The notes under the pieces: model-generated
What the model saw: only the letters and a program-made list of their open reading frames with translations
Database searches by the model: none
What the model was told of the DNA's origin: nothing
IMG/VR virus record: IMGVR_UViG_3300020156_000447
DNA from: a virus
Lineage: Duplodnaviria; Caudoviricetes
Reading direction: 5' to 3' (one strand)
DNA length: 64,000 bases
Made by a program: the position numbers and the translations under genes
Part shown: piece after piece, positions 43,338 to 43,557 of the stretch
Numbering within the stretch: the first letter of the stretch is position 1
Layout of the letters: each line of letters begins with the position of its first letter

Positions 43338-43557
43338 GGGAGGAGGGTTAACAGCCCGGCCCAAACACGCCTGCTGCGGAGCGGTCTGACTCTTTTGAGA
43401 GAATAACAGATGACGTGAGCAGGCACCTTTTCGACCGGTAGTTGCAGGTTCGAATCCTGCCAAGTTCTGCGTCTTGTGGAGTAATAGGTAACTGTCTGAA
43501 TCGACCGGCGCGGAGACGAAAACGCAGGTCTGGCGACTGGACTAAAGCAGTCGCAAG
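43338..43557 (+). ncRNA. RNA element E4, containing a circularly permuted tRNA mimic (core 43431-43504, YrlA-like)
   Basis: T arm 43444-43460 precedes a loop-closed acceptor stem CAAG/CTTG (43461-43476) and a D arm (T8, GAGT-AATAGGTA-ACTG); also GCCTGCT/AGCAGGC and GCGACTG/CAGTCGC stems. Confidence 0.7.

Follow-up and report, generated by a model that had tools for sequence, protein, structure and literature searches.

A probable rearranged tRNA-derived fragment, rather than a YrlA-type Y RNA, in a non-coding island of a temperate Verrucomicrobiota phage

Prophage, host and non-coding island

The analysed window comprises 64,000 nt and is part of a 69.9-kb provirus record. A tyrosine integrase gene at its right end identifies a real prophage of a temperate phage, and beyond this gene a 314-kb MAG contig continues with a host tRNA-Met(CAT) (L091 9837-9911) and ordinary bacterial genes. 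The MAG (GCA_035629175.1) was assigned to Verrucomicrobiota subdivision 3 on the basis of its host proteins, and the host genome used throughout (G218) is the same genome (100% match, expected coordinates). As it holds 47 tRNA matches and a full tmRNA (163 bits), G218 is not badly incomplete.

An island of 1,135 nt separates the small early genes on its one side from an AAA ATPase gene on the other, with which the replication and recombination module opens. No gene was called in the island in four independent assemblies of the prophage, and four assemblies besides that of the window were 100% identical across it. No tRNA was found by ARAGORN in the window, the Rfam search of the island returned nothing at gathering score, and the Rfam tRNA model gave no match in 42000-45500 at E-values up to 10. 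The main features of the locus are as follows.

1-7605 of the provirus record (G000), in the window up to 1710, minus strand: ORF of 2,534 aa at the left end of the record; a search with its protein for the left end of the prophage yielded nothing
42911-44045, plus strand: non-coding island of 1,135 nt, between an early gene (42515-42910) and the AAA ATPase gene (44046-45386)
43209-43332, plus strand: neighbouring tRNA-like RNA of 124 nt, alanine-type, with a 7-bp acceptor carrying G3:U70, A73-CCA and a paralogous T arm
43338-43557, plus strand: unit of 220 nt that contains the tRNA-like element, with AATTTT spacers at 43332 and 43558
43533-43554, plus strand: 7-bp hairpin GCGACUG/CAGUCGC that closes the 220-nt unit just before the spacer
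62645-64000, minus strand: tyrosine integrase gene, right end

Several units of the island share an end. The 3'-end motif YCC[AG]CCA[AG]TTT was counted four times. Two of the copies are the exact 11-mer TCCACCAATTT, which ends two RNAs (43174-43196 and 43209-43332/43334); the weaker copies stand at 43666 and 43749. Both RNAs with the exact 11-mer combine an acceptor helix of the G3:U70 type (alanine identity) with an encoded ACCA and are, judged from these letters, candidate tRNA-like RNAs for charging by AlaRS. The 124-nt RNA was also matched by the Rfam tmRNA model with 26.2 bits (E 5.7e-8; gathering score 47), a score in the same range as or lower than those of the host tRNAs with this model (15.2-41 bits). 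Units with a 7-bp stem and NCCA were not enriched in the window (71 vs 64 in shuffles), and the folding z-scores were significant for no unit tested. Of the evidence on CCA-ended units, the recurrent 3'-end motif and the unit of 124 nt alone are solid. The 220-nt unit, unlike its neighbours, has no NCCA end, and its MFE structure is a string of hairpins with -77 kcal/mol.

With regard to expression signals, a promoter-like phage motif, GGTTGAC[GC]-N15/16-AACAGATCA, was located at 41909-41939, 42211-42243 and 58957-58987 and on the minus strand at 30796, and a variant, GGTTGACG-N15-AATTTTATG, precedes the AAA ATPase gene at 44017-44048. A degenerate copy at 43384-43413 was set aside, as its spacing is wrong and it lies within a hairpin. 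The phage encodes a sigma-70-family protein. The sequence AATTTTATG is the start context of several phage genes (3223-, 16030-, 37351, 37726 and 44040), and at 43558-43581 and 43672-43695 it precedes mini-ORFs of 5 codons, each of which stops at a TAG within a D-like loop. The early transcript with the island may end at 43778-43835, where a hairpin of 14 bp precedes a U-rich tract.

Permuted tRNA-like motifs and their ancestry

For the 220-nt unit, an earlier note, written from the letters alone, had described the parts of a tRNA in permuted order, namely a variable-like segment, a T arm, a closed stem, U8-G9 and a D arm. All of these motifs were found where the note had placed them, and their coordinates were re-derived from the sequence. 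They are given below together with the region of tRNA homology and the two strands of a possible closing stem.

43427-43439, plus strand: possible closing stem of a YrlA-like fold, 5' strand in a constrained fold, including the first TCGACCGG copy
43434-43460, plus strand: tRNA 3'-half homologue, composed of the anticodon-stem 3' strand ACCGG, the variable loop UAGUU and the T arm
43439-43443, plus strand: variable-like UAGUU
43444-43460, plus strand: T arm GCAGG-UUCGAAU-CCUGC, perfect and canonical
43461-43476, plus strand: acceptor-like, loop-closed stem CAAG-UUCUGCGU-CUUG, with an 8-nt loop and 4 Watson-Crick pairs
43477 and 43478, plus strand: U8 and G9
43479-43494, plus strand: D-like arm GAGU-AAUAGGUA-ACUG, with 3 of 4 pairs
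43504-43515, plus strand: possible closing stem, 3' strand, overlapping the second TCGACCGG copy

The D-like arm is held by the pairs A80-U93, G81-C92 and U82-A91 next to a G79/G94 mismatch, and its 8-nt loop fits the tRNA consensus A14-R15-N-N-G18-G19-N-A21 exactly. A Levitt pair between A15 and U48 would be possible in the element. At the place where the anticodon arm would be expected, there is only a CCGG-based stem of 4-5 bp and 9 extra nt after the D arm, with no anticodon loop. The pairing of the ends through TCGA/TCGA, as proposed in the earlier note, was superseded: the best closing stem is CCGGU (43435-39) with ACCGG (43504-08), which in a constrained fold grows to 11 bp (43427-39 with 43504-15) with one bulge and one mismatch. 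The direct repeat TCGACCGG that had been reported at 43431 and 43501 is present, its second copy covering 43501-43508. However, this octamer was counted 14 times in the whole window, mostly within genes, where 4.4 copies were expected, and because of this over-representation the repeat is weak evidence. An extended tandem duplication with a period of 70 nt was checked for and dropped, as only the octamer aligned.

Among 100,000 shuffles, 70 showed the combination of closed stem, U8 and D-loop directly after a T stem, and in the natural sequence of the window it stood at 40 of 127,880 positions (0.03-0.07%), but the true significance is weaker than these values, because the pattern was defined post hoc, after the sequence had been inspected. 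Consensus T arms (GGTTCRANYCC) were found three times in the window vs 0.8 expected, and two of the three lie inside the island. By their letters, the motifs are thus real, non-random and tRNA-derived, whereas the folding models described below do not support a permuted cloverleaf.

The first half of the element was compared with the host tRNAs. In homologous register, 23 of the 27 nt at 43434-43460 agree with positions 39-65 of host tRNA-Trp(CCA), the best among 33 distinct host tRNAs (the next reached 21 and 20). For the D-like arm, no matching host tRNA D arm was found, and in the homologous stretch of tRNA-Trp 9 of 18 positions agree with it. At 139 nt upstream, inside the 124-nt RNA, the T arm has a paralogue (19 nt, 43305-43323, 89% identical). 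Both copies are preceded by GTAGTTG, and the upstream one is identical to the T arm of host tRNA-Trp and tRNA-Leu. The two T-loop differences between the paralogues fall on positions that are tolerated in tRNAs, which hints at selection on the T arm. An origin of the internal T arm as an attachment-site remnant was rejected, because the prophage integrated at tRNA-Met, about 20 kb from the T arm.

Beyond the identical assemblies, no homologue of the island with sequence variation was found. A blastn search of phage records for distant relatives of 43000-44000 returned nothing, and blastn and nhmmer searches with each island unit detected no homologue in 85 related loci. The 131-aa protein encoded upstream has no relatives. 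The AAA ATPase has 561, the closest with 60% identity, and the locus of this closest relative (L006) contains stem-closed units with AAUUUUU spacers at 9490-10000. One of these units has an internal T arm, GCGGG-UUCAAGU-CCCGC, which is related to the upstream paralogue through a compensatory stem change; nothing in L006 corresponds to the D-like arm. In L045, the AAA ATPase gene is directly preceded by a tRNA-like RNA of 145 nt (2764-2908) whose parts are an acceptor of 7 bp, a D arm of class-II-like type and a T arm, and the same slot is occupied by an odd 90-nt 'tRNA-Arg' in L031 (2194-2283) and by a normal tRNA-Met in L049. The slot upstream of the AAA ATPase gene holds fast-evolving structured or tRNA-like RNAs in some relatives.

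YrlA model scores, Ro60 and predicted folds

In YrlA RNAs, as described by the Rfam model RF02553, the same order is found, i.e., closing stem, variable region, T arm, loop-closed acceptor-like stem and D arm, and the element shares with them a canonical T loop and tRNA-type D-loop letters. Using Infernal with permissive thresholds, 43436-43501 was aligned to model positions 23-88, the tRNA-like module only, with 22.3 bits (E 0.18), where the gathering score is 69 bits. The positions 1-22 and 89-114, which form the Ro60-binding ends, had no match in the element. Within the host genome, the element ranked second with this model, behind an unrelated match of 22.5 bits, and no better candidate was present. 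A score of this height does not discriminate, because 28 bits were reached, in a genome of this order, by an ordinary tandem pair of tRNA-Ala and tRNA-Ile genes, the best YrlA match away from Ro60 in the TROVE-bearing genomes of the host's order. Dimeric tRNAs are a named false-positive class for the YrlA model (Chen et al. 2014, PMC4201824).

For comparison with authentic members, we turned to the order of the host, where TROVE was found in 23 of 151 genomes (about 15%). In front of the verrucomicrobial Ro60/TROVE genes stand YrlA-like RNAs in tandem, one to four in number (loci L106-L125), with 28.6-57.6 bits. Every one of these Ro60-linked RNAs scored below the gathering score of 69, so that the lineage is under-detected by RF02553. 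The 18 Ro60-linked YrlAs that were aligned have in common GNCGAA, GGGUUAUCG, the T arm, a covarying closed stem of 6-8 bp and a D arm UAGCUCA..GGUAGAGC. A lineage covariance model built from them aligned only the 17-nt T arm of the element (12.1 bits, E 0.53). In contrast to these RNAs, the closed stem of the element has 4 bp, its D stem GAGU/ACUG differs from the near-invariant YrlA D stem (GCUC/GAGC), although the D-loop letters fit, and it has neither GGGUUAUCG nor GNCGAAN0-1G. This last motif, the proposed Ro60 contact, had its only plus-strand match of the island at 43070, far upstream of the element, and the GACGAA at 43516 stands on its 3' side and has no final G.

The absence of a Ro60 gene from the window, which the earlier note had pointed out, was borne out and extends further. 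A YrlA should be bound by Ro60, carry pseudouridine 55 and dihydrouridine and have a Ro60/TROVE gene within about 4 kb on the same strand. No TROVE match was obtained in the 69.9-kb prophage record, in the host genome or in the four nearest species. DUF2828 gave no match in the phage or in the host genome, the ACAGCAA/CAGCAA motif is absent from the island, and none of the phage proteins scanned was an RNA-binding candidate. The recruitment of host Ro60 that had been suggested thus lacks both its protein, in the remaining prophage and in the host, and the 5' Ro60-binding motif. From the proposed YrlA architecture, the permuted motif order and the alignment to the tRNA-like module stand, but the identity as a Y RNA does not, as the score (below those of all Ro60-linked YrlAs of the order), the lineage model, the 5' motif and the fold all speak against it.

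The fold was evaluated against a competing structure, which belonged to the MFE in every context folded and is incompatible with both the closed acceptor-like stem and the D arm.

43465-43515, plus strand: rival long, irregular hairpin with a 9-bp base UUCUGCGUC/GGCGCGGAG and a GNRA tip

In this hairpin, the bases of the D-like arm form the GNRA-capped tip AUAG-GUAA-CUGU. The MFE of the fragment 43425-43562 was -46.3 kcal/mol. Forcing the T arm resulted in -43.8 kcal/mol with the long hairpin still present, while forcing the YrlA-like fold (T arm, closed stem and D arm) resulted in -36.7 kcal/mol. The least stable variant tested, with -33.7 kcal/mol, was the one in which CUUG is paired with the downstream CAAGA; this alternative partner, CAAG(A) at 43554-43558, adjoins the next spacer. 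The YrlA-like fold therefore lies 9.6 kcal/mol above the MFE on this fragment and 10.1 kcal/mol above it in the calculation that was also applied to the control YrlAs, with the qualification that nearest-neighbour energies leave out tertiary contacts. The closed stem CAAG/CUUG adds -2.2 kcal/mol, the D stem contributes 0.0 kcal/mol, and the ensemble probability of the closed stem in context was 0.00. By comparison, in a control with 16 real YrlAs, the fold with T arm, closed stem and D arm either coincided with the MFE or came within 0-4.1 kcal/mol, and probabilities of 0.72-1.00 were obtained for the closed stem. When the 78-nt module was isolated, the YrlA-like cloverleaf lay only 2.6 kcal/mol above the module's own MFE. 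The YrlA-like fold of the element is not thermodynamically favoured.

For searches with the YrlA model, this means that matches of 20-28 bits flag any T arm followed by D-arm letters, ordinary tRNA pairs included. Such weak matches should be accepted only where a fold control, a link to Ro60 and the 5' motif all back them up.

Interpretation of the element

With a probability of roughly 0.55, we interpret the element as a rearranged tRNA-derived fragment, a relic or a module, in the non-coding RNA island of a temperate Verrucomicrobiota phage and not as a YrlA-type Y RNA. On sequence grounds, 43434-43460 copies the 3' half of a tRNA, with host tRNA-Trp as the closest, and is a paralogue of the T arm in the adjacent alanine-type RNA. 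D-loop-like letters follow this T arm, yet the acceptor-like stem (4 bp) and the D stem (3 bp) are marginal. The phage promoters at ~41.9 and ~42.2 kb would probably drive the island together with the early genes upstream of it, and the transcript would probably be cut at the AAUUUU spacers to give the unit of ~220 nt. Within this unit, two hairpins are probable, one made by the T arm and the GNRA-capped one by the bases downstream, with no cloverleaf. The back-to-front look would then have arisen where a T-arm-bearing piece was joined to the 5' part of the next tRNA-like piece, and it is this geometry through which tandem tRNA genes also reach a score with the YrlA model. Host enzymes that act on T arms (TruB, TrmA) may bind or modify the intact T arm of the host type; a Ro60 partner was not found.

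Among the other explanations, the similarity to YrlA RNAs can be taken at face value. A true Y RNA of the YrlA family that recruits host Ro60 and PNPase could draw on the partial match of 22.3 bits and on the occurrence of Ro60 in about 15% of the genomes of the order, but with no TROVE in prophage, host or the four nearest species, with the GNCGAAN0-1G motif missing, both ends of the model unmatched and Ro60-linked YrlAs of the order that look different, this explanation is close to refuted. A working permuted tRNA elbow mimic that does without Ro60 and, as a decoy or scaffold, offers its D/T elbow to tRNA-binding factors of the host is less easily dismissed. It would fold into the closing stem, variable loop, T arm, loop-closed acceptor-like stem and D arm, and it accounts for the alignment to the YrlA tRNA-like module, the tRNA-type D-loop together with U8 and the possible A15-U48 pair, the low chance frequency of the pattern, the available 11-bp closing stem, the small energy gap of the isolated module and the internal T arm within a stem-closed unit of L006. 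However, the two short stems contribute little energy, the fold in context is ~10 kcal/mol above the MFE with zero ensemble probability in a test that real YrlAs pass, the lineage model recognises the T arm only, the D-like arm is missing from L006, and the searches for TROVE and DUF2828 in phage and host and the scan of phage proteins yielded no partner, so that modelling leaves such a mimic decidedly unlikely. If it were true, phages would use the inside-out tRNA fold of the YrlA type without Ro60, which would imply another partner. Similarly improbable is the broader idea that this prophage of a Ro60-less host carries a Ro60-independent, YrlA-like elbow mimic together with the alanine-type RNAs (G3:U70, ACCA) as a toolkit against host tRNA enzymes or tRNA-targeting defences.

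The motifs may also belong to two separate molecules. In this case, the T arm would end a 5'-truncated upstream unit, and CUUG-UG-D arm would start a downstream unit of ~88 nt, whose acceptor would pair UCUUG (43472-76) with CAAGA (43554-58) right before the AAUUUU spacer. The CAAGA partner is located exactly where the neighbouring units have their 3' ends, the position of the T arm in the downstream unit is taken by the 7-bp hairpin, and an acceptor strand followed by 2 nt and a D-like arm starts other units as well (L006 9706-9812; 43566 and 43680 in the window). Furthermore, adjoining tRNAs are the false-positive class of Chen et al. 2014 (PMC4201824), for which the 28-bit tRNA pair is a practical case. 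Nevertheless, the fold with the CAAGA acceptor was the least stable one tested, the unit has no NCCA end, neither ARAGORN nor the Rfam tRNA model calls a tRNA on either side, and the upstream unit has no 5' partner; two adjacent units of this kind are therefore considered unlikely. Finally, the island may have no RNA function and act at the level of the DNA, for instance as a replication origin or regulatory region, with the tRNA-like letters as leftovers. Its position just upstream of the replication and recombination module, the AT-rich AATTTT motifs, the many inverted repeats, the non-significant z-scores and the lack of enrichment of stem-NCCA units agree with this. Against it stand two intact T arms of the host type in the island, one of which keeps the exact geometry of a tRNA together with ACCA and a G3:U70 acceptor, the fourfold 3'-end motif and the tRNA-like genes of related phages in the same slot, and a pure DNA function consequently appears very improbable.

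Returning to the rearranged tRNA fragment as the preferred reading, three known arrangements are similar in part. In Cyanidioschyzon merolae, permuted tRNA genes have their 3' half placed before the 5' half, with the junction across the acceptor stem; they keep the full anticodon arm and are processed into working tRNAs. The element also has 3'-half parts before 5'-half parts, but it lacks an anticodon arm and its acceptor comprises 4 bp only. In tandem tRNA genes that score as YrlA, the YrlA order is imitated across the border of two units, where the first contributes its T arm and the second its D arm, whereas here no complete tRNA is recognisable on either flank, and the distance from T stem to U8 is only 16 nt. 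Phage tRNA clusters with decayed or non-canonical members are similar in that the element carries a host-type T arm and lies in the slot that holds the tRNA or tRNA-like genes of L031, L045 and L049. Unlike such clusters, the island is devoid of any canonical tRNA, two of its units end in the alanine-type UCCACCA, and AAUUUU spacers are present.
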